From Gammaproteobacteria bacterium (lineage in GTDB: Bacteria; Pseudomonadota; Gammaproteobacteria; SZUA-229): a DNA stretch of 64,000 nucleotides. Of the stretch, positions 12,899 to 39,459 are shown in pieces; position 1 is the stretch's first letter; each line of letters begins with the position of its first letter. Both the position numbers and the translations under genes were made by a program. A model generated the notes under the pieces. The model saw only the letters and a list, made by a program, of their open reading frames with translations. It did no database searches and was not told the DNA's origin. The stretch spans positions 471 to 64,470 of the forward strand of contig DATCTK010000022.1 of assembly GCA_036567985.1 (NCBI GenBank). The letters run 5' to 3'.

Positions 12899-14560
12899 TT
12901 AGTCGTAACTGGTATCAAAAATATCAATACTGCAATCTTCGGTGTTTAATTCATCCATATCCTCCATTGTGTTGAATAAGGGTTCACTCTCATGCTGCTC
13001 CAGCCCTGCTGGCAGGTTGTCTGAATCCAGCTCATGTGAGATAGCCTCGTGGTCCACAAGCAGTTTTGCCTGGGCGCGTTTTTCATCAGCGTGCTTTTCA
13101 AGGCGTTTTATTTGACCTTTCAGTCTGTTCTGCTGCATGTCTTCCATGCGACTTTCACTTACATAAGCCGTGCGCTGTGTGATTTCCGCATCGCAAATCA
13201 GGCGTTCATCTTTAGTGAGTACTCGCACCATTGAATCGTTATGCAAATCGTATTCAACATGTACCTGCTGTGTGTTAAAACGAATTAACTCGGGGTGACG
13301 GTATTCACGGTTGAATAATGTAATGGAGCCACGTCGAATGGTGCGCTCAATGCGTGGGCGCACAATAGCCTCAGATGTCATGTGCACTGGCACACGCTCC
13401 AGCTGTTTCCACAGGCTGGCTGGTGTTGCACCGTTAAGTGCCTTGTGAGGCCGGTTGTTGTAGAAGTTGATAAATTCTTTCAGGCCGTCCAGGTAGGTTT
13501 GCAAACTGGGCAGTGGCTTTTTCCCTGACTTTGCATCGGTCAATACTTTTTTAATGGAATCCTGTGCCATATCGTGGCCGCAATATGAATGAAAGGTTTT
13601 ATCGAACTTGTCGCGCAGTGTTCTAAACCAGCGTTCCACCTGACCTTTACCCTTCGGGTTGCCGGGTATTGAGAACATCACGTTCAAATCAAAACGTGAA
13701 TAAAAGCCGGTCGATTCATCATGCATCATCTTGCTGCGAAAGCCCGAACCATTGTCAATGTGCAATGCGGCTGGCACATGATCATGGCTGATTAATGCAT
13801 GGCTTAATGAAAACAGTGTGGAATAACTCGATTCTGCAACGCTCATATACCAGCCCGCAATGTATCGACTGCGCACATCAATCCATACCGTGAGTTCTGG
13901 CCGCCATGGGTTACCAGTTAGTGGGTGTGCCAGGTACGCATCAATGGTGTGACCATCGCCCTGGTAAATACCGCCCACCGGAATGCACTCTGTGTCACGT
14001 ACCCGTGAAGGGGTTTGCGTGTCATGATATAACTTGCTGCCCATGCGGCGCTTCTCACGCACATCATGTGGCAGGCTTTTTATAAAGCGGCTTACCCGGC
14101 TATAGGTTGCATCGCTAAAACCTTCCTGTTGCAGCAGCTCGGCCACGGTGGACATCGCCAGCTTTTGTGGTTGCTGGTACCAGTACAATGCACGAGCCTC
14201 CCAGCTGCCCAGCTTCCGCTGACGGCCTTTATGCGCAGACACCAGCCCATTCACACCATCTTCACTGTACGCCTTTACCCAGCGAGCAACCGTGGGGTGG
14301 CTGGGTGGTTTACCTTTACTGCCCAGGTCATCCGCTAACTTCTGCAACTCATCTGATGCGGCCTGGCACTTGATAGATACCAGCAGGTTTTCAATGGCGG
14401 CTCTTTGCGACACCCCGCGCTGTATATCATTTAATATTGGCTGTATAAATTGCTCACGTGTGCGTGCAAGTCTTCGCTTTGCCTGGGGCAACTTATCAAA
14501 CTCTGTTGTCAGTTGATCAGGCACAATGCCGTACTCTGGTCTGATGGCGACAACATTCAT
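12899..14560 (-). CDS. DDE transposase, Mu A / rve integrase-core family
   Basis: 553 aa. Integrase core with WIDVRSRYIAGWY ... HIDNGSGFRS ... catalytic pattern; N-terminal HTH/winged-helix region. Paired with the B ATPase. Confidence 0.9.
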   Translation of the reverse strand: MNVVAIRPEYGIVPDQLTTEFDKLPQAKRRLARTREQFIQPILNDIQRGVSQRAAIENLLVSIKCQAASDELQKLADDLGSKGKPPSHPTVARWVKAYSEDGVNGLVSAHKGRQRKLGSWEARALYWYQQPQKLAMSTVAELLQQEGFSDATYSRVSRFIKSLPHDVREKRRMGSKLYHDTQTPSRVRDTECIPVGGIYQGDGHTIDAYLAHPLTGNPWRPELTVWIDVRSRYIAGWYMSVAESSYSTLFSLSHALISHDHVPAALHIDNGSGFRSKMMHDESTGFYSRFDLNVMFSIPGNPKGKGQVERWFRTLRDKFDKTFHSYCGHDMAQDSIKKVLTDAKSGKKPLPSLQTYLDGLKEFINFYNNRPHKALNGATPASLWKQLERVPVHMTSEAIVRPRIERTIRRGSITLFNREYRHPELIRFNTQQVHVEYDLHNDSMVRVLTKDERLICDAEITQRTAYVSESRMEDMQQNRLKGQIKRLEKHADEKRAQAKLLVDHEAISHELDSDNLPAGLEQHESEPLFNTMEDMDELNTEDCSIDIFDTSYD

Positions 14561-15757: not shown

Positions 15758-16249
15758 TTAAATGCCCGTGTTACGGGGGTGTAATATCTGTTCAAGCCGC
15801 TTGATATCGCGCCGGGCTTTTGCCTGGTCCAGCAGCTTGCTGCCCAGCTCGGCCACCAGCTGGTCGCGGCCATCAACCAGGTCGTAACCAAGTGGTTGTA
15901 CTAATGCCAGCAACGGCACCAGCGACTGGGTGGCCCAGCAAAACGCTGGCAGGTAGCGGGCTGGCATGTTGTGGTATTCCTTGCTGTGGGCTGTCCAGGC
16001 ATTGAGCTGTCGCAGGGTTATCTGCTCTCGCGTGTCCGCTTCTGGCAGGCACATGTTCATGCGCTCCACGATGCGTTCACGGCTATACCCCAGCTGGCGG
16101 GCTTCACGGATCGCATGCTTGGTGGCCGCCATCAGCTCCAGGTTAATGTCCAGATCCTGTGCATCACGGGCCTCCAGTGCGGTGGTTTCGGCCAGTTGCT
16201 GGAACATATCGGGCTGAATACTGGTAAAAGGTTTTGTGCTTTTAGCCAT
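15758..16249 (-). CDS. Hypothetical early protein
   Basis: 163-aa ORF in the ner-to-A gene chain; no recognisable motifs. Confidence 0.4.
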   Translation of the reverse strand: MAKSTKPFTSIQPDMFQQLAETTALEARDAQDLDINLELMAATKHAIREARQLGYSRERIVERMNMCLPEADTREQITLRQLNAWTAHSKEYHNMPARYLPAFCWATQSLVPLLALVQPLGYDLVDGRDQLVAELGSKLLDQAKARRDIKRLEQILHPRNTGI

Positions 16250-16799
16250 TAACCGGATCCTCGGCGGGTGTTAGGCTGGTGTCGTCGTTAGCATTTGCCT
16301 GACGTGCCTTTTTAGATAATGGGCGGTGCGGCCACAGTGGGCAGCCGAAGTAACTACCGGGCTGGTTAAGCTTTCTATCTAATGGGAACACGTTGTTGCA
16401 GTTGTCTATAAACTGGCGGTTGTTGCCCGTGCATTCGGCGCACTTGGCATTAACCGCTTTGCGGCGTGATTTAGGCTGGTTCACCACGGCCAGTTCAGTT
16501 TTTGAGCTGTAGTCAGCCAGTGCAGCCTGACGCTGTGCCTGGCCGTAATCGTCTGCAACCATGTGTTGCCAGGGCCGCAGGCTCCATAACGGGCAAGCCC
16601 AGGCGGTGCATTGCGCCACTTCTTTGCGAGGGTTGGCATCAGAACCAGCGCCCACGCATTCATAGCAGGTGGCCTTAATGGCATTGGTCAGTGAGGTCGG
16701 TGTGCGGATTGAGCGTTGAACTGGGTTGAGCTTTTCAAGTTCTCCGGTTTGACGCAGCTCCTGTTGGGCAAGCCTGGCTTTTTCGAGTGGATTGGTCAT
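16242..16799 (-). CDS. Hypothetical protein with duplicated Cys motif
   Basis: 185 aa. Two copies of C-x2-C...C...CPLW(x)RP(W) (CYECVG...CPLWSLRPW and CAECTG...CPLWPHRP). Confidence 0.45.
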   Translation of the reverse strand: MTNPLEKARLAQQELRQTGELEKLNPVQRSIRTPTSLTNAIKATCYECVGAGSDANPRKEVAQCTAWACPLWSLRPWQHMVADDYGQAQRQAALADYSSKTELAVVNQPKSRRKAVNAKCAECTGNNRQFIDNCNNVFPLDRKLNQPGSYFGCPLWPHRPLSKKARQANANDDTSLTPAEDPVNG

Positions 16800-17029
16800 G
16801 CCGCTGACCTCCGGCCGCGCCTGGGTGGCTGGCTATAGCGGCCGTCGGGAAACAGCCGGTTCAGCGGTATATTGGTGACTGCTGCGATGTGGCTGGCGAT
16901 GTTGTAAGATGCAATCTGGCCGCGAATGGTCTGGCTTACAGCATTGTGCTGTACGCCCAGTGCCTTCGCTGCCTGGCCAGGGGATGACCCGGCCTTATAT
17001 AAAGCGGCATTAATGTCTGCCCAGTGCAT
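16796..17029 (-). CDS. ner: Ner-like DNA-binding protein
   Basis: 77 aa. HTH region AAKALGVQHNAVSQTIRG... typical of Mu Ner/Nlp. Divergent from the repressor gene. Confidence 0.75.
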   Translation of the reverse strand: MHWADINAALYKAGSSPGQAAKALGVQHNAVSQTIRGQIASYNIASHIAAVTNIPLNRLFPDGRYSQPPRRGRRSAA

Positions 17030-17164
17030 GATGTGCTCCTTTATAACTAGGTGGCGACCTGGCGGGGTCGCCGTTTTTTGGTTTGATTAGATGCCTTTTG
17101 GCATGATGTGAGATGAATATAGCCTCCATACGGAGGCTTTGTCAAGCATCAATAAGGGGGCTTT
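17030..17164. promoter_or_regulatory. Divergent early/repressor control region with operator-like palindromes
   Basis: Contains the hairpin GGCGACCTGGCGGGGTCGCC followed by TTTTTT (17063-17091), and the palindromes ATGCCTTTTGGCAT and AGCCTCCATACGGAGGCT, between ner and the XRE repressor. Confidence 0.5.
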
Positions 17165-17503
17165 TTGAAAAAAGCTGAACAAGGCTCTATTGGTGAGCGT
17201 TTACGTGATTTGCGTGCTGGTATGAGCCAGAAAGAATTTGCGGAGCTGTTAGCTATCGGTCGAGCAACACTTCAGCGTTATGAAGGTAATGAGCGAAATC
17301 CAGACGCTGAACTAATAATCAAGCTTAACGTGCTGTTTGGTGCAGATCCTCTGTGGTTGCTTACAGGTAAAGAACCAGACACAGGTGGGCCAGCACTCAC
17401 CGCAAAAGAACAGCAGTTGCTGAAGGGTTACAGGCAACTGGATAATGAGAGAAGAGCGGCTATTGATGGTATGGTGCAGGCGCTGGTAAAACAGGGTAAA
17501 TAA
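17165..17503 (+). CDS. XRE-family HTH repressor (phage c/cI-like immunity repressor, no peptidase domain)
   Basis: 112 aa. HTH MSQKEFAELLAIGRATLQRYEGNER. Divergently transcribed from ner, as in Mu-like phages. Confidence 0.8.
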   Translation: MKKAEQGSIGERLRDLRAGMSQKEFAELLAIGRATLQRYEGNERNPDAELIIKLNVLFGADPLWLLTGKEPDTGGPALTAKEQQLLKGYRQLDNERRAAIDGMVQALVKQGK

Positions 17504-17507
17504 TGCA

Positions 17508-18311
17508 GTGAATTGTTTTTATGAACCAGGGTTGCCATATCCACATGTTTATTATCCTGAGCTATATGGCGTTTTTATTGGTTTTGCGAAGATACCAGGC
17601 GGTAGCATCTATTTATGCAGTTGCCATAAGTTTGCACTTTCCAGATATATAGCAAATCGTTATACCGCTAAGACATGTCTTAAAGGCCGATGGTGTGTAG
17701 TAGAAGAACAAGATTTTCCCCCGGCACTGATTGACCAATTACACACTAAAGCCGGAATGTCAGCATATGAGTTATTGCATACATTCAAATTTGCACTGCA
17801 TATTTGCCACCGCTGCAACCAGACGCAGCCACTAAATATTTATTGTCTTGCTATGTATGGTAATTTATTCAAGCAGCATTTCGGCTGGTATGTAAAAACC
17901 CACATGCTTTCATTTGGTAATGATGAAAAAAGTGCCGAGCTGAATGTCAGGGCTGCTTTTGGATTTCCGGCAACGGGCAAGCCGCATGTAACTGAAAAGA
18001 TTCTCATGGGTTACATCAAAACCATATACCCGAATAATATTGTCGAATATAGAGTAAGGCTAAAAGAGCTGGAAGGCATGGAGCTCGATATATATTTGCC
18101 TGAATTGAGGCTTGGAATTGAATACCAGGGAAAACAGCATTACAAACCAGTAGGACATTGGGGTGGTGAAGAAGCATTACGCGAGACAAAAATCAGAGAC
18201 CGCCGCAAGAAGCGATTATGCAAACAGCATGGCATTAAATTTGTTACATTTAATTACAGGCAAAAGCTTTCAATTGATTATGTAGAAGACAAACTGAGAA
18301 AGGAGAAATAA
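17508..18311 (+). CDS. Zinc-finger protein with C-terminal DUF559/Vsr-like PD-(D/E)xK endonuclease domain (candidate defence/exclusion nuclease)
   Basis: 267 aa with a GTG start 4 nt after the repressor stop. N-terminal Cys pairs (CSCH, CLKGRWC, CHRCN). C-terminal ELDIYLPELRLGIEYQGKQHY...RDRRKKRLCKQHGIKFVTFNY matches the DUF559 pattern (D..E.K core; RDxxR...G..V.RF). Strongly AT-rich compared with the flanking phage DNA. Confidence 0.6.
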   Translation: MNCFYEPGLPYPHVYYPELYGVFIGFAKIPGGSIYLCSCHKFALSRYIANRYTAKTCLKGRWCVVEEQDFPPALIDQLHTKAGMSAYELLHTFKFALHICHRCNQTQPLNIYCLAMYGNLFKQHFGWYVKTHMLSFGNDEKSAELNVRAAFGFPATGKPHVTEKILMGYIKTIYPNNIVEYRVRLKELEGMELDIYLPELRLGIEYQGKQHYKPVGHWGGEEALRETKIRDRRKKRLCKQHGIKFVTFNYRQKLSIDYVEDKLRKEK

Positions 18312-18312
18312 A

Positions 18313-18504
18313 ATGCCAATCTTTTTATTTATATGTGCGGTACTGGTGCTCCTCTGGAGCATGTTGATGTATATGGGGTCGACAACCGCGTTCCATGAGA
18401 TACAGGCCAGCATTATTTTCATGACGTCTGCACTGTTGTTTACAGGTGCCGCCATTATCGAGGCCGTAAATAAGTTGCAAAACAGTATCAAACAAAAGGG
18501 CTAA
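18313..18504 (+). CDS. Small two-TM membrane protein, co-operonic with the nuclease
   Basis: 63 aa with strong RBS AAGGAGAAATAAAATG. Two hydrophobic helices (IFLFICAVLVLLWSMLMYM; IIFMTSALLFTGAAII). Confidence 0.55.
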   Translation: MPIFLFICAVLVLLWSMLMYMGSTTAFHEIQASIIFMTSALLFTGAAIIEAVNKLQNSIKQKG

Positions 18505-18953
18505 TCACAGCGGTCACCACTAATATTAATAATGGTGTTGTTATATGCTTCTATGTGATTTGTGGGCCCGGTTGACGACAGGGCTGATATAATGACGTAA
18601 GCTACTAATGCACCGAAGCCGAAAGCGATTGCGGTTTTTAAGGTGGTACTGTTACTGGTTTGCTGTTTCATGACGCTTTAATTATACACATGAATTAAAT
18701 CGCTTTTACCTGTCTGCAATGCGGTTGCCAGGCGGATTTTGCTGAATGCACAAAACAGCCCCTAAAACGGCGCAAAAACCCCGACCCGCACCATTGGCCC
18801 ACGATTCGCTCAAACGCGTCTTAGAAATCGCTTTGCCCTATACCCAAAACAAGCAAAAAAAGTGACTTGAATGCTGTTAAAGGTGTGATTAGTGGATATT
18901 CCATTGCGAGCGGTTAAAACCTGATGTAACCTTGCAATTACACCACCACCCAG

Positions 18954-18986
18954 AAGAGGGGAGACAAAAGTCTCCCCTCTTTTTTT
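18954..18986 (+). terminator. Palindrome AGAGGGGAGAC-AAAA-GTCTCCCCTCT plus T7 (intrinsic terminator ending the repressor operon and/or late-promoter element)
   Basis: 11-bp stem, 4-nt loop, TTTTTTT tail. Stem core is identical to the 9023-9042 palindrome. Lies 9 bp upstream of the protease ATG. Confidence 0.6.
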
Positions 18987-18994
18987 ATGCCTGC

Positions 18995-20173
18995 ATGGCA
19001 CACACTCTCGCCATGCCAAATTCAAACACACACATCGACTTCAAAGGTTTCGGCGACTGGATAGAACTGTTTCGCGCAGGCGAACAAACCTCCAGCGACG
19101 GCACTACCCGCAATTTCACCCAGGCAGATCTCGATCAGATGGTGGCCAACCATACCCCGGCCCCCATGGTTGTGGGGCATCCTAAGGTAGATGCACCAGC
19201 CTATGGCTGGTCACAGGCACTCAAGCGTGATGGTGACACTTTACTGGGTAAGTTTAGCGATGTAGACGATGCCTTCAGTGAAATGGTGGAGAAGAAGCGA
19301 TTCCCGAACCGTTCTATTCGTATTGGCAAAAACGATAACGGCTGGTACCTGAAGCACGTTGGCTGGCTTGGCGCGGCTGCGCCTGCCGTGGAAGGTCTGA
19401 AGCCGGTGCAGTTTAACAATGCCGACGATGAAGCATACGACTTTGTAAGCGATGCCTACACCACCAGCAGCATTGTGCGCACGTTCCGACGCCTGCGTGA
19501 TTTCATTGTTGACAAATTCGACCTGGAAACAGCCGACCAGGTAATTCCCGATTACACCCTCGAAAGCCTGGAACAAATTGCAGCCGATCAGCGCAGCGAA
19601 CCAGATGATTCCCACTTTAATCAACCCAACAACGGAGACACAGCCGTGCCGAAAGAATATACCGATGAGCAGATTGAACAAATCCGCAAAGACGCAGCGG
19701 ACGAAGCGACCGCCCAGTTCAGCAGTGAAAACGACACACTGAAAAAACAGCTGGCCGATGCCAACAGCGCCAAAACAGCGATTGAGTTCCAGGCATTTGC
19801 TGATGATCTGCAAGATGCAGGCAAGCTTACACCGGCTTTGGCTACTGGCTTTGTTGAGTTTATGCAGGCACTGGCCGCTGCACCCGTAGAGCTGGAATTC
19901 AGCCAGGGCGAAGGTGATGCCAAAACCGCGATTAAAAAATCGCCCATCGACTGGTTCAAGGAATTTGCCCAGCAGCTGCCTAAGCAGGTGGATATGGGTG
20001 AGTCGGCTGCCGGTGGCAATGTCGACACAGTGGATGCCGCTGCGCAATTTAATGCACCAGCGGGTGCGGTGGTAGACCCTGAGCGCCTGGCACTGGATAA
20101 AAAGGCCCAGGAATACGCCCGTGTAAACAATGTTGATTACGTTGAAGCGGTGATAGCCGTCAGCAACGGTTAA
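18995..20173 (+). CDS. Head maturation protease / scaffold, Mu I-like
   Basis: About 392 aa from the Met after the hairpin (the track ORF start lies inside the hairpin). N-terminal protease-like region, C-terminal acidic/Ala-rich scaffold-like region. Upstream of the capsid gene. Confidence 0.65.
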   Translation: MAHTLAMPNSNTHIDFKGFGDWIELFRAGEQTSSDGTTRNFTQADLDQMVANHTPAPMVVGHPKVDAPAYGWSQALKRDGDTLLGKFSDVDDAFSEMVEKKRFPNRSIRIGKNDNGWYLKHVGWLGAAAPAVEGLKPVQFNNADDEAYDFVSDAYTTSSIVRTFRRLRDFIVDKFDLETADQVIPDYTLESLEQIAADQRSEPDDSHFNQPNNGDTAVPKEYTDEQIEQIRKDAADEATAQFSSENDTLKKQLADANSAKTAIEFQAFADDLQDAGKLTPALATGFVEFMQALAAAPVELEFSQGEGDAKTAIKKSPIDWFKEFAQQLPKQVDMGESAAGGNVDTVDAAAQFNAPAGAVVDPERLALDKKAQEYARVNNVDYVEAVIAVSNG

Positions 20174-37779: not shown

Positions 37780-39459
37780 TTAACTCTCACCCGCCTGACG
37801 GGTAACATCCACATACAGTTTCAGCATCTGCCCCGGCTGCAGGTACTTACCGGTAAACTGGTTCCAGCGTTTCAGGTCGTTGACCGCTACCCTGAACTTG
37901 GAAGCAATCAGGTACAGCGAATCACCGTTGCGCACCCGGTAGGAAATGCGCTGGATGGTATTGGCCTGGCCCCGGCTGGTTGAGGTTGAAATCAGCCCCG
38001 GGCTGGATTTGGTCCAGATCACCAGTTTCTGTCCGGCGCGCAGTGGGTCACGCACGGCCATGCCGTTCCAGCGGGCAATCTTGTGTGTGCTCACCTTGTA
38101 CTTACGCGACAGATCCCAGAAGGTGTCACCCGGCTGCACGATGTGGGTGACCTTGTGTCCCTGGCGGTTGATATTCTGCAGGGTTTTTTTGCGCTGGTAG
38201 GCGGTGAGGTTGTAGTCCGACAGGCTGCGGCTGGCGACCGGAATTACCAGGTGGCGGCCGGCGCGGATAATTTGTGAATCCAGGTTATTGTGGCGCTTCA
38301 GGCTGGCTACCGAAACCGAGTAGCGGTCGGCTATGTGACTCAGGGTTTCACCTTCACGGATACGGTGGCGTTTCCACTTAATGCGCTCGTCTTCGGGAAT
38401 CATCGCCAGGTTGGTTTTAAACACATCCGTATGGTTCACAGGAATCAGCAGGTGGTGCGGCCCAAAGGGGTCGGTTGCCCAGTGGTTAAACGCCGGGTTC
38501 AGCCGGTAGAGCTCGTCCAGTTCCAGCCCGGCCATTTCCGCGGCCATGGCCAGGTCCAGCTGTGATTCAGTATCCACCACTTCAAAGTAGGGGATATCCG
38601 CCACGCAGTTAAGGGTAATGCCGTATTCTTCGGGTGTGTCGACCAGGCGTTTCAGCGCCAGCAGCTTGGGTACATAGGCGCGGGTTTCCCTGGGCAGGTC
38701 CAGGTTCCAGAAGTCGGTGGGCTTGCCGCGTTTCTGGTTATTGCGAATAGCTCGGCGCACGGTGCCGGAACCCGAGTTATAGGCGGCCAGTGCGTGCAGC
38801 CAGTCGCCCTTGAATTCCCGGTGCAGGCTTTCCAGGTAATCGAACGCCGCCATGGTGGAGGCATAGATGTCGCGGCGACCGTCGTACCACCAGTTCTGTT
38901 TCAGGCCGTAGATTTTGCCGGTGGAGGGAATAAACTGCCAGATGCCGGCAGCGCGGCCGTGGGAATAGGCAAAGGCCTGGAAGGCGCTTTCCACCACCGG
39001 CAGCAGTACCAGTTCGGTGGGCAGATTGCGCTTTTCAGCCTCGTTCAGAATAAAGTGCATAAACGGCTCGGCGCGTTCCACCACGCGATCGAGGTAGTTC
39101 TGGTGTTTAGCATACCAGTTCAGCTCGGAAATCAGTCGTGGGTTATCGGTGATATCCTCAATTGCGAAGCCGGCGCGTAGGCGGGGCCAGATATCGGTGA
39201 TGTCGCTGCGGTAATCATCGGGGTTGATGGCAAACAGCAGATCGTCATTCGGTTCTGCCGCCTGTAGCGGTTTCACTGTTTCGGTCGCTTCCTCTGCATC
39301 GGCCCTGTGGCTCAGGCTGGCAGAGCAGGCGAGCAGTGAACTGCCCAGCAGGGCAATGCCCAGGGTGCTGGAAACGGCTTTAAAAATGGCGGGTAGATTT
39401 GGCGAAATAGGTATAGTAAACAATGGCCTGGCTTCTTTATCTAAATTCATGATGAGCAA
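37780..39459 (-). CDS. mltD: Membrane-bound lytic murein transglycosylase D-like protein with LysM domains
   Basis: 559 aa. Signal peptide, SLT catalytic region (ESAFQAFAYSHGRAAGIWQF), C-terminal LysM repeats (GDTFWDLSRKY...; GDSLYLIASKF...). Confidence 0.85.
   Translation of the reverse strand: MLIMNLDKEARPLFTIPISPNLPAIFKAVSSTLGIALLGSSLLACSASLSHRADAEEATETVKPLQAAEPNDDLLFAINPDDYRSDITDIWPRLRAGFAIEDITDNPRLISELNWYAKHQNYLDRVVERAEPFMHFILNEAEKRNLPTELVLLPVVESAFQAFAYSHGRAAGIWQFIPSTGKIYGLKQNWWYDGRRDIYASTMAAFDYLESLHREFKGDWLHALAAYNSGSGTVRRAIRNNQKRGKPTDFWNLDLPRETRAYVPKLLALKRLVDTPEEYGITLNCVADIPYFEVVDTESQLDLAMAAEMAGLELDELYRLNPAFNHWATDPFGPHHLLIPVNHTDVFKTNLAMIPEDERIKWKRHRIREGETLSHIADRYSVSVASLKRHNNLDSQIIRAGRHLVIPVASRSLSDYNLTAYQRKKTLQNINRQGHKVTHIVQPGDTFWDLSRKYKVSTHKIARWNGMAVRDPLRAGQKLVIWTKSSPGLISTSTSRGQANTIQRISYRVRNGDSLYLIASKFRVAVNDLKRWNQFTGKYLQPGQMLKLYVDVTRQAGES

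Follow-up and report, generated by a model that had tools for sequence, protein, structure and literature searches.

A swappable cargo cassette directly behind the repressor gene of a Mu-like prophage was found in the stretch of 64,000 nucleotides analyzed here (the window). It bears the marks of a phage moron, namely conserved phage flanks, variability among close relatives and atypical composition. In our interpretation, which we give about even chances, the region represents a hypervariable accessory ('moron') slot of the prophage lysogenic operon and carries a lysogen-expressed, restriction-like nuclease. Judging by its context, this nuclease may serve in defence, exclusion or as a toxin, and it makes a good candidate for a novel anti-phage weapon encoded by a single gene.

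Table 1. Features of the cargo slot and its surroundings (window coordinates; nuclease domains in residues).
Feature	Position	Strand	Details
ner	16796-17029	-	Reference point for placing the early promoter
Early (Pe-like) sigma-70 promoter (putative)	17116..17145	-	TTGACA-18-TATATT, 11/12 matches (consensus match only)
XRE/CI-type prophage repressor, 112 aa	17165..17503	+	TTG start; first gene of lysogenic operon
Swappable cargo cassette	17504..18299	.	blastn breakpoints vs L185, L186, L197
267-aa solitary nuclease (predicted)	17508..18311	+	GTG start
N-terminal domain of nuclease	~aa 1-150	+	Cys4 site C37, C39, C100, C103; no solved-fold match
C-terminal Vsr/EDxHD-type PD-(D/E)xK domain of nuclease (predicted)	~aa 155-267		E192, D194, E205, H211, D231, K234
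TM63, 63 aa, two TM segments	18313..18504	+	ATG start; AAGGAG 8 nt upstream
56-aa ORF, one hydrophobic segment	18501..18671	-	phrog_4506 at 3e-7
Diverged non-coding spacer	18706..18925	.	Alignment; between cargo and conserved block upstream of protease
Intrinsic terminator	18952..18990 (stem 18952-18983)	+	Strong hairpin; 14-bp stem, AAAA loop, T7
Head maturation protease / scaffold, first late gene	19013..20173	+	phrog_976 at 1.1e-86; right slot boundary

The reading frames and spacings given in a preliminary description of this DNA were confirmed, including the Shine-Dalgarno sequence and the two hydrophobic segments of TM63. Only 4 nt separate the repressor stop codon from the GTG of the nuclease gene and 1 nt separates the nuclease stop from the ATG of TM63. 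The block from 17508 to 18504, earlier noted as visibly AT-rich, has a GC content of 0.406, whereas the window averages 0.512 (sd 0.031 over 997-bp windows). Windowed GC places the lowest-GC kilobase of the window here, the block itself ranking second among 1261 windows of this size and the lowest one starting at 17501; for the cassette alone the value is 0.399. No terminator separates the repressor, nuclease and TM63 genes, and a strong one follows at 18952-18990. Its hairpin has a folding energy of -24.4 kcal/mol (z = -6.0; 0 of 200 shuffles equally stable) and arms that pair perfectly over 12 nt. A strong hairpin with T7 had thus been rightly recognized, but it does not abut the block end at 18504: the terminator of the cassette lies about 450 nt past the TM63 stop, directly before the head-protease start. 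It belongs to a block shared with the sister phages (88-96% DNA identity to L185 and L186 from 18924 on), and would end the repressor/cargo transcript ahead of the protease gene. Promoter-like sites numbered 5, vs 4.7 expected from shuffles, and the nuclease gene appears to rely on the repressor promoter. On the other strand, a consensus promoter match may drive the ner/transposase arm, divergent from the repressor operon. An Rfam search of 16800-19100 returned nothing above threshold and a sub-threshold match to the terminator hairpin only.

Comparison with sister phages delimits the cassette sharply. Homology stops at the repressor stop codon (17503/17504) and resumes at the Shine-Dalgarno sequence of TM63 (18299/18300). 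The sister phages, with capsids 94-97% and MuA 94% identical to those of the window, lack the nuclease and carry an SNase-type nuclease, secreted proteins or a Zn-ribbon TM protein in the same slot, while L172 holds yet another cargo. An empty slot was seen in none of the five sister or related phages examined, all of which contain alternative cargo. L197 and L198 retain 29 codons from the 3' end of the nuclease gene as a remnant. The genes of the phage form two divergent arms; the repressor borders the slot on one side and the head protease/capsid genes on the other. The preliminary description had placed the cargo between c and the left end of Mu; this placement was ruled out by the head and tail genes, which come next on the cargo strand. 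The true start of the protease is probably the MPNS start at 19013 and not the listed TTG at 18932, as judged by aligning it with its counterparts in L001 and L172. A metagenome scan with the protease yielded only loci already found in IMG/VR.

TM63 is a real gene under purifying selection. Three homologues of 63 aa are 76-81% identical to it, with dN/dS values of about 0.08-0.13. It adjoins an SNase or secreted protein gene in L185, L186 and L197 and is absent from L001, L172 and L124, two of which (L001 and L124) carry the nuclease. TM63 is therefore a conserved slot resident of this phage lineage and not nuclease-specific. The earlier proposal that nuclease and two-TM protein form one module did not hold up, and since either gene is found where the other is missing, an obligate pair was rejected. 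A looser cooperation, in which TM63 would work with whichever nuclease fills the slot (Vsr-like here, SNase in the sisters) and DNA would be destroyed at its entry point, strikes us as improbable. The minus-strand 56-aa frame is present as described, with one hydrophobic segment and no recognizable Shine-Dalgarno sequence. It lies within an insertion of about 200 nt (18505 to about 18705) that spacer alignment finds only in this window and not in L185, L186 or L197, and it is possibly a small opposite-strand moron. No tblastn match was obtained for it in any fetched locus, nor for either small frame among phages, and scans of both with Pfam, NCBIfam and PADLOC gave nothing meaningful.

All motifs quoted earlier for the 267-aa protein are present in its translation. 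D194, E205, H211 and D231 never vary among 51 diverse family members, and conservation of E192 reaches at least 90%. A Cys-rich N-terminal half had been correctly noted; family-wide, only C37, C39, C100 and C103 are conserved, and the C-x5-C motif is restricted to this lineage. An AF2 model built from 51 sequences is confident (pLDDT 94.4); it replaced an earlier model from 7 sequences that was poor in the N-terminal half (pLDDT 67). Based on this model, the catalytic domain is predicted to adopt a Vsr-type fold within the Vsr-like branch of PD-(D/E)xK enzymes. A similarity to the RAP domain makes RNA conceivable as a substrate too. The anticipated Vsr-type fold and active site were thus borne out, while the DUF559 assignment was not: Pfam returned no family at E <= 10, including DUF559 (PF04480) and Vsr (PF03852). 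The N-terminal domain matches no solved fold. In structure comparison it resembled none of the known modification readers or DNA-binding folds, and no SRA, PUA/EVE/YTH, DUF3427 or winged-helix reader domain is recognizable in the protein. Presumably, its Cys4 site binds zinc. NCBIfam gave nothing relevant, a phmmer/profile search against PDB sequences gave nothing significant, and PADLOC-DB v2 had no match at E <= 1 for the nuclease, TM63 or the 56-aa frame. A match of the CHxCN...P...YGWY region to a succinate dehydrogenase Fe-S subunit was at chance level (E about 0.8) and was disregarded. The nuclease belongs to PHROG families 19778 (4e-47) and 27771 (1.5e-39), both of unknown function, so this membership adds no functional information. 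That the combination is not a named system, as first noted, agrees with the fact that no PADLOC, Pfam or NCBIfam model covers the nuclease; the literature likewise yielded no named Vsr- or DUF559-type prophage defence system.

The nuclease is a member of a large, unnamed and diverged family with at least 738 clusters at 50% identity. Its members occur in Bacteria and Archaea, on plasmids and in prophages, and none is annotated. Their distribution is sparse and patchy over phages, plasmids and IS-rich regions and includes non-phage chromosomes. A blastn search of the region against GenBank phages produced one trivial 62-nt match. DUF723, DUF4379 and CapR, seen in the distant matches P0009 and P0010, correspond to N-terminal repeats outside the nuclease domain there and therefore do not name the catalytic domain. 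No partner gene is conserved across the family (145 neighbours, 39 genome loci), and no methylase is a consistent neighbour in the 39 loci (N6_N4_Mtase occurs twice among the 145 neighbours). Broad occurrence of the pair in housekeeping contexts had been named as a finding that would speak against a defence role; the neighbours instead vary between loci and are frequently mobile-element or defence genes. On chromosomes, a family member directly follows hsdMSR, with an integrase adjoining, in L005 and L006, lies near a PLD nuclease and HsdR in L002, and directly follows a Mrr-type nuclease in a methylase/Hsp70/AAA cluster in L008. Scattered matches to pAgo, DpdF, MADS, PDC and methylase models were found among the 145 neighbours. 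Defence genes are neighbours in a minority of loci only, and the copies in L010 and L011 stand solitary among housekeeping genes. These two observations were counted against a defence reading, along with the lack of a PADLOC match, the rarity of XRE neighbours, the position of a Clostridium phage homologue before terminase genes and the selfish homing endonucleases that are the nearest annotated relatives of the catalytic domain.

Family members right behind a repressor gene are also found in more distant Mu-like phages and in unrelated prophages. In L001, a family nuclease (57% identical) lies 3 nt behind a repressor that is only 26% identical, in a phage with a 66% identical capsid. The gap is 22 nt in L124, a Vibrio injensis Mu-like prophage (nuclease 29%, capsid 26% identical), and 2 nt in L018, while the two genes overlap by 4 nt in L126, where an integrase is nearby. 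Relatives sharing the catalytic domain alone follow the repressor in L153 and L021, and in L013 and L115 a family member sits between a divergent XRE gene and ImmA. An XRE gene immediately upstream and translationally coupled is the classic layout of type II toxin-antitoxin systems. The nuclease could accordingly be the toxin of such a pair or of an abortive-infection pair, restrained by the XRE repressor or by operon control and freed to kill the cell upon prophage loss or infection. The coupled gene order, the XRE-then-nuclease arrangement in at least 7 loci, weak matches of the repressor to XRE antitoxin and control-protein models and the RES toxins among neighbours elsewhere are in line with this. 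However, the XRE protein is clearly a phage repressor: it matches HTH_3 (2.6e-10), Phage_CI_repr (4.7e-6) and PHROG transcriptional repressor families, is divergent from ner, and is 76-80% identical to the repressors of L185 and L197, which are kept without the nuclease. Further, a conserved pairing of XRE and toxin genes was not observed across the family, with an XRE gene within two ORFs of about 8 of 94 full-length members, a lower bound because a crude home-made HMM was used, and HTH_3 in 5 of the 145 neighbours. Since more than 90% of the family has neither an XRE neighbour nor any conserved partner, the nuclease must be tolerable on its own. We regard a toxin role of this kind as improbable.

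Still less probable, in our estimate, is an enzyme of the phage life cycle or of DNA repair, which would process transposition or packaging intermediates in a TnsA-like manner, degrade host DNA or nick mismatches as Vsr does. The same slot is used in three Mu-like phages with capsids only 26-66% identical, and in Clostridium phages a homologue lies directly upstream of the terminase small subunit, outside the immunity region; both would suit such an enzyme. Against it, the gene is dispensable, being absent from the closely related sister phages, the family is widespread in non-phage chromosomes and plasmids, and no cytosine methyltransferase was present among the prophage early genes scanned, which comprise part of the ORFs.

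Another explanation is a selfish free-standing homing-type endonuclease that cuts a specific site in related phages lacking it and is copied in by repair, its site next to the repressor being merely tolerated. This agrees with PHROG matches of the nuclease to homing and intron-encoded endonuclease families, with a tblastn match to a Kayvirus 'group I intron-associated VSR homing endonuclease', and with intron-associated Vsr/EDxHD homing endonucleases being the nearest annotated sequence relatives of the catalytic domain. The patchy spread, the solitary copies among housekeeping genes and the constant insertion point despite repressors diverged to 26% identity point the same way. On the other hand, the gene is an ordinary operon ORF and not located in an intron or intein, Rfam found no intron RNA, and Pfam detected neither NUMOD nor any further DNA-binding module known from homing endonucleases. 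The slot was never empty in the phages compared, and several family copies adjoin restriction systems. Nuclease and capsid have diverged to similar extents in both L001 and L124, a pattern expected more from long co-inheritance than from recent homing. Decay is common among homing endonuclease genes, whereas the catalytic residues are conserved over the 51 diverse members. Overall, we consider a homing-type element unlikely.

We favor the lysogen-expressed, restriction-like nuclease. Repressor transcription would run on through the coupled nuclease gene and TM63 and stop at the strong terminator, which would insulate the late head genes from the repressor transcript. With the cargo on this transcript, every lysogen would make the nuclease together with the repressor. 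The nuclease may act as a single-protein, restriction-like enzyme, and the absence of a conserved partner and of a cognate methylase in 39 loci fits a self-sufficient, solitary enzyme. Its N-terminal domain would pick a feature of foreign nucleic acid, be it a modification, a structure or a sequence missing from the host, and the C-terminal domain would then cut the selected nucleic acid. Being made constitutively, the nuclease would also have to spare the host chromosome, a point that was counted against this reading. Since the N-terminal domain has no counterpart among known modification readers or DNA-binding folds, this mode of target selection is purely what we infer. Heterologous phages and other mobile elements would be excluded, to the gain of both prophage and host. 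As a more tentative and on balance doubtful extension, the Cys4 plus Vsr-type protein could be the founding example of an unrecognized family of single-protein immune nucleases in Bacteria and Archaea, with the N-terminal domain as a sensor of invading nucleic acid. Several unrelated temperate lineages would have hard-wired such nucleases to their repressors, making self-immunity and competitor restriction one unit.

If the nuclease restricts phages or plasmids, it would constitute a compact single-gene defence system of 267-350 aa with an uncharacterized zinc-type sensor or targeting domain. If it is a homing-type element, the EDxHD family would gain a new targeting domain and lifestyle. The slot itself is sharply bounded and welded to the repressor of a group of Mu-like phages, with nucleases and envelope proteins swapped between near-identical phages. 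It is useful for mining further lysogen-expressed functions, and as a natural experiment it can inform on the ways in which prophages arm their hosts.

Among characterized enzymes, the E. coli repair nuclease Vsr (PDB 1cw0 / 1vsr) and the EDxHD homing endonuclease I-Bth0305I (PDB 3r3p) are relevant points of comparison. The residues in question are D51, H64, H69 and D97 in Vsr and D196, N208, H213 and D222 in I-Bth0305I (PMC3239194). The predicted catalytic residues of the nuclease follow in the same order, a correspondence drawn from motif order and not from superposition. In contrast to Vsr, the nuclease has an extra Cys4 N-terminal domain of 150 aa and no match to the Pfam Vsr or DUF559 families. 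It is prophage cargo and not a repair gene, and a Dcm-type methylase partner was found neither among the early genes scanned nor in the 39 loci. With the EDxHD homing endonucleases it shares the composite E, D, H, D motif. These enzymes carry NUMOD repeats at the N-terminus where the nuclease has its Cys4 domain, and instead of introns or inteins, the gene occupies a lysogenic operon here and defence islands elsewhere in the family. Moreover, its family is far larger and mostly located in cellular genomes.

The solitary type IV (modification-dependent) restriction enzymes PvuRts1I and AbaSI, which contain a Vsr-like domain, represent a broader class of reader-plus-nuclease MDREs (PMC6765204). 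The solitary state without a cognate methyltransferase is common to type IV enzymes and the nuclease (39 loci). However, the domain order is reversed relative to PvuRts1I and AbaSI, and structure comparison showed nothing SRA-, PUA- or DUF3427-like in the N-terminal domain. With regard to genomic setting, Pseudomonas phage Fc02 is a transposable phage with repressor-linked exclusion genes, which encode small proteins and lie upstream of the repressor (PMC9936078). The Fc02 genes and phage morons in general resemble the present case in that variable accessory genes of atypical composition are transcribed in the lysogen with the repressor of a Mu/B3-like phage, co-transcription being a prediction here. 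The cassette described here differs from that of Fc02 in that it encodes a putative nuclease and is translationally coupled behind the repressor, apparently without a promoter of its own.

The window carries a Mu-like prophage composed of two divergent arms joining at the immunity region. From ner, the minus arm runs leftward and encodes MuA, MuB, DUF3164, GemA, Mor, lysin, holin and DUF1804 as well as the large terminase, the portal and a MuF-like protein. On the plus arm, the repressor is followed by cargo, head protease and then capsid, tail sheath, tape measure and fibres. In canonical Mu, by contrast, the genes follow one left-to-right order. The cargo is therefore situated mid-prophage, between repressor and late head genes, whereas the preliminary description assumed a place between c and a genome end. 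Further, the 185-aa Cys-rich protein encoded next to ner had no significant Pfam or PHROG family and no tblastn match in the related loci L001 and L172-L186, and the 559-aa LysM protein could be right-end phage cargo or the first host gene. The hairpin between ner and the Pe-like promoter is terminator-like solely on the plus strand and may stop antisense read-in to the repressor or act as an operator structure.

Features of the prophage and of related loci (window coordinates unless a locus is named)
Feature	Position	Strand	Details
Mu-like prophage region	81-37163		two divergent arms
MuA	12899-14560	-	Mu-transpos_C 7e-16
185-aa Cys-rich protein	16242-16799	-	right downstream of ner; two CxxC-containing clusters
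ner	16796-17029	-	start 17029
Hairpin	17049-17076	+	GC-rich, then T-run
Pe-like promoter	17145-17116	-	
XRE repressor	17165-17503	+	HTH_3 2.6e-10, Phage_CI_repr 4.7e-6
Nuclease ORF, 267 aa	start 17508	+	GTG start, 4 nt past repressor stop
TM63 ORF, 63 aa	start 18313	+	1 nt past nuclease stop; AAGGAG 8 nt upstream
56-aa ORF	18501-18671	-	one hydrophobic segment
Hairpin plus T7	18952-18983		14-bp stem, -24.4 kcal/mol, z = -6.0
Head protease	probable start 19013 (MPNS)	+	phrog_976, 1e-86
559-aa protein	37780-39459	-	LysM, peptidoglycan-hydrolase similarity; just past tail-fibre genes, opposite strand
SNase-type gene	L185 4802-5227; L186 1370-1885		directly upstream of TM63
Nuclease remnant	L197 2259-2345; L198 1175-1261		ahead of TM63
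Secreted-protein family	L172 5858-6712; L197 1778-2287		284 aa; 169 aa
Vibrio prophage locus	L124 6280-7966		NZ_BDJF01000025.1
Clostridium tetani phage member	L199 4986-6074		phiCT19406A gp29
66-aa two-TM gene	L019/L020 5415-5616		just upstream of family member

ORF calling recovered all four ORFs previously claimed for the repressor-cargo block, in the layout described. Block 17508-18504 has a GC content of 0.406, compared with 0.512 on average for the window (sd 0.031), and a windowed check bore out its low GC as it is essentially the lowest-GC kilobase of the 64 kb. The hairpin plus T7 said to end the block exists and is strong; it lies ca. 450 nt past the 63-aa two-TM gene (TM63), directly ahead of the probable head protease start, and does not abut the block. 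In case of the 56-aa ORF, spacer alignment placed it within a ca. 200-nt insertion (18505-18705) missing from all sister phages. Apart from a weak PHROG match (phrog_4506, 3e-7), no further homologue and no clear Shine-Dalgarno were found, and TATAAT is positioned 9 nt upstream of its ATG. This ORF could be a very small moron on the opposite strand whose transcript would be nearly leaderless.

The 267-aa protein (hereafter nuclease) had no match in Pfam (down to E <= 10), NCBIfam or PADLOC. A 7-sequence model yielded a confident fold for the C-terminal half only, and a 51-sequence model reached a pLDDT of 94.4 and a pTM of 0.86. The Vsr-like fold predicted earlier proved right: structure comparison gave 10.9 for Vsr, and Foldseek returned 1vsr with probability 1.0. 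Further matches were the NGO0050 endonuclease-like protein (10.2), FASTKD4 and apicomplexan RAP domains (about 10), the I-Bth0305I catalytic domain (10.0), TnsA (7.0), AbaSI (6.8) and PvuRts1I (6.3). Among the matches listed there was no standout non-nuclease structure, and the first ca. 150 residues are therefore without a recognisable solved homologue. Across 51 diverse family members, D194, E205, G208, Q210, H211 and D231 are invariant while E192, K234, C37, C39, C100 and C103 are at least 90% conserved. The resulting E-x-D ... E ... H ... D order fits the EDxHD composite motif and parallels, by motif order rather than superposition, the catalytic residues of I-Bth0305I (D196/N208/H213/D222) and Vsr (D51/H64/H69/D97; PMC3239194). 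The simplest reading of the CxC...CxxC quartet is a structural zinc site. Of the cysteine motifs pointed out initially, these four positions are conserved and C-x5-C is limited to the lineage of the window nuclease.

A word-indexed homology search returned 10 relatives. Exhaustive profile searching found 738 cluster representatives (50% identity) aligning over the full length at E <= 1e-30 and 28,467 at E <= 1e-3, which we take to be mostly the catalytic domain alone. All named members are called hypothetical protein and none carries a precomputed Pfam domain. Hosts comprise Firmicutes, Bacteroidota, CPR bacteria, Proteobacteria, Acidobacteria, Halobacteria and Thermoplasmatota; members also occur on 49 plasmid records and in Clostridium tetani and Staphylococcus SPbeta-like phages. 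The usual length is 330-360 aa, and an interdomain helical insert (ca. 60-90 aa) is missing from the window nuclease and its closest relative. Some long members carry N-terminal TerB_N (P0018, P0046, P0050, P0068), ankyrin (P0014) or TPR (P0128) modules, which may hint at roles in sensing or protein interaction. The whole nuclease falls into PHROG families 19778 (4e-47) and 27771 (1.5e-39), both function-unknown, while PHROGs labelled homing, intron-encoded or HNH endonucleases match residues ca. 160-265 only. The ancestry of its catalytic domain and its patchy distribution would suit a selfish homing-type endonuclease, but we consider this unlikely as there is no intron, no NUMOD repeat and no empty site in the five sister or related phages compared, nuclease divergence parallels that of the capsid, and the catalytic residues are invariant.

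Three TM63 homologues were found, each 63 aa long with 76-81% identity, on contigs of near-identical phages (capsid 94-97%, protease 88-95%, MuA 94%). Their repressor-to-head-protease interval (hereafter slot) holds, after the repressor, a 154-aa signal-peptide protein, a MuF fragment, an SNase (PF00565) and TM63 in L185; a 152-aa Zn-ribbon/TM protein, an SNase with signal peptide and TM63 in L186; and a 157-aa Zn-ribbon/TM protein, a 169-aa secreted protein and TM63 in L197/L198. DNA homology to the window ends precisely at the repressor stop codon (17503), is back at the TM63 Shine-Dalgarno (18300; 18251 in L197) and returns again at 18924. In L197 and L198, 29 codons of the nuclease 3' end (55% identity) are left as the footprint of cassette replacement, and the nuclease-TM63 order was therefore probably ancestral there and displaced later. 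As the SNase-type gene of L185 and L186 takes the nuclease's place, a nuclease beside TM63 recurs with two unrelated folds. The two genes do not form the module initially proposed: L185, L186 and L197 keep TM63 without the nuclease, and the more distant Mu-like relative L001 has the nuclease without TM63. TM63 shows a dN/dS of 0.08-0.13 and is a genuine gene, independent of the nuclease. Conservation of the slot might suggest a life-cycle or repair enzyme, yet the nuclease gene is dispensable in near-identical phages and we give this reading very little credence.

In L001 (capsid 66%, protease 52%), the nuclease (57% identity) lies 3 nt past a repressor of just 26% identity and precedes an unrelated Zn-ribbon ORF of 64 aa. 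The slot of L172/L173 (capsid 73%) holds a 284-aa secreted protein and neither nuclease nor TM63. A Mu-like prophage of Vibrio injensis M12-1144 (L124, capsid 26%) carries a CI-type repressor, 22 nt, a 335-aa family member (29% identity) and the head protease; this isolate could serve as a culturable experimental system. The slot is thus hypervariable, yet the nuclease family recurs across a wide Mu-like span. The secreted proteins of L172 and L197 represent alternative slot cargo with homologous C-terminal halves and no Pfam match; the L172 gene has a very low GC content (0.28-0.38).

Repressor-linked members also exist in unrelated prophages. One lies 2 nt past an HTH_3 repressor with a divergent cro-like gene (L018), another overlaps an HTH_3 gene by 4 nt close to an integrase (L126), and a third is flanked by a divergent XRE gene on one side and ImmA protease on the other (L013/L115). 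In L153 and L021, HTH_3 is followed by a relative sharing the catalytic domain alone, with Rha and amidase near the former. In Clostridium phages, by contrast, the member immediately precedes the gene for the terminase small subunit. The related IMG/VR prophages L019/L020 have an unrelated two-TM gene beside their member. Chromosomal copies were found right after hsdM-hsdS-hsdR with an adjoining integrase (L005/L006), near a PLD nuclease and HsdR (L002), right behind an Mrr-type nuclease within a cluster of methylase, Hsp70 and AAA genes (L008), in an integrase island (L007) and in housekeeping-gene surroundings (L010, L011). A census of two ORFs on each side at 39 genome loci revealed no conserved partner; the 145 neighbours represented 144 Pfam families, of which HTH_3 (5) was commonest, then rve (3), methylase (2) and RES (2). 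PADLOC matches among neighbours were scattered (MADS, PDC-S01, PDC-S02, PDC-S37, DpdF, pAgo, type II methylase). Coupling to the XRE gene would be in line with a TA/Abi toxin, but sister phages keep the repressor while missing the nuclease, and any XRE neighbour is lacking for over 90% of the family (proximity within two ORFs, ca. 8 of 94 full-length members, is a lower bound), rendering a toxin very unlikely.

The defence, exclusion or toxin role suggested initially is a plausible candidate function. We propose that the protein would be a self-sufficient single-polypeptide nuclease carried as mobile-element cargo, which several temperate phage lineages may have linked to expression of the repressor operon. 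In the lysogen, it would most economically serve to exclude foreign nucleic acid in a restriction-like manner, a reading supported by two precedents: exclusion genes co-transcribed with the repressor in the transposable phage Fc02 (PMC9936078) and Vsr-type domains as predicted effectors of ARMADA and Druantia-like systems (PMC12458937). RNA may also be a substrate, which we keep in play because of the RAP similarity. Solitary type IV enzymes with Vsr-like domains exist and the nuclease has no methylase partner, making a modification- or structure-dependent mode attractive; as the N-terminal domain is unlike any known reader, such target selection is speculation. The nuclease cassette is a worthwhile experimental target and less so a conceptual surprise: it would represent a known kind, prophage nucleases expressed in the lysogen or solitary restriction-like enzymes, here built on a widespread uncharacterised protein family.
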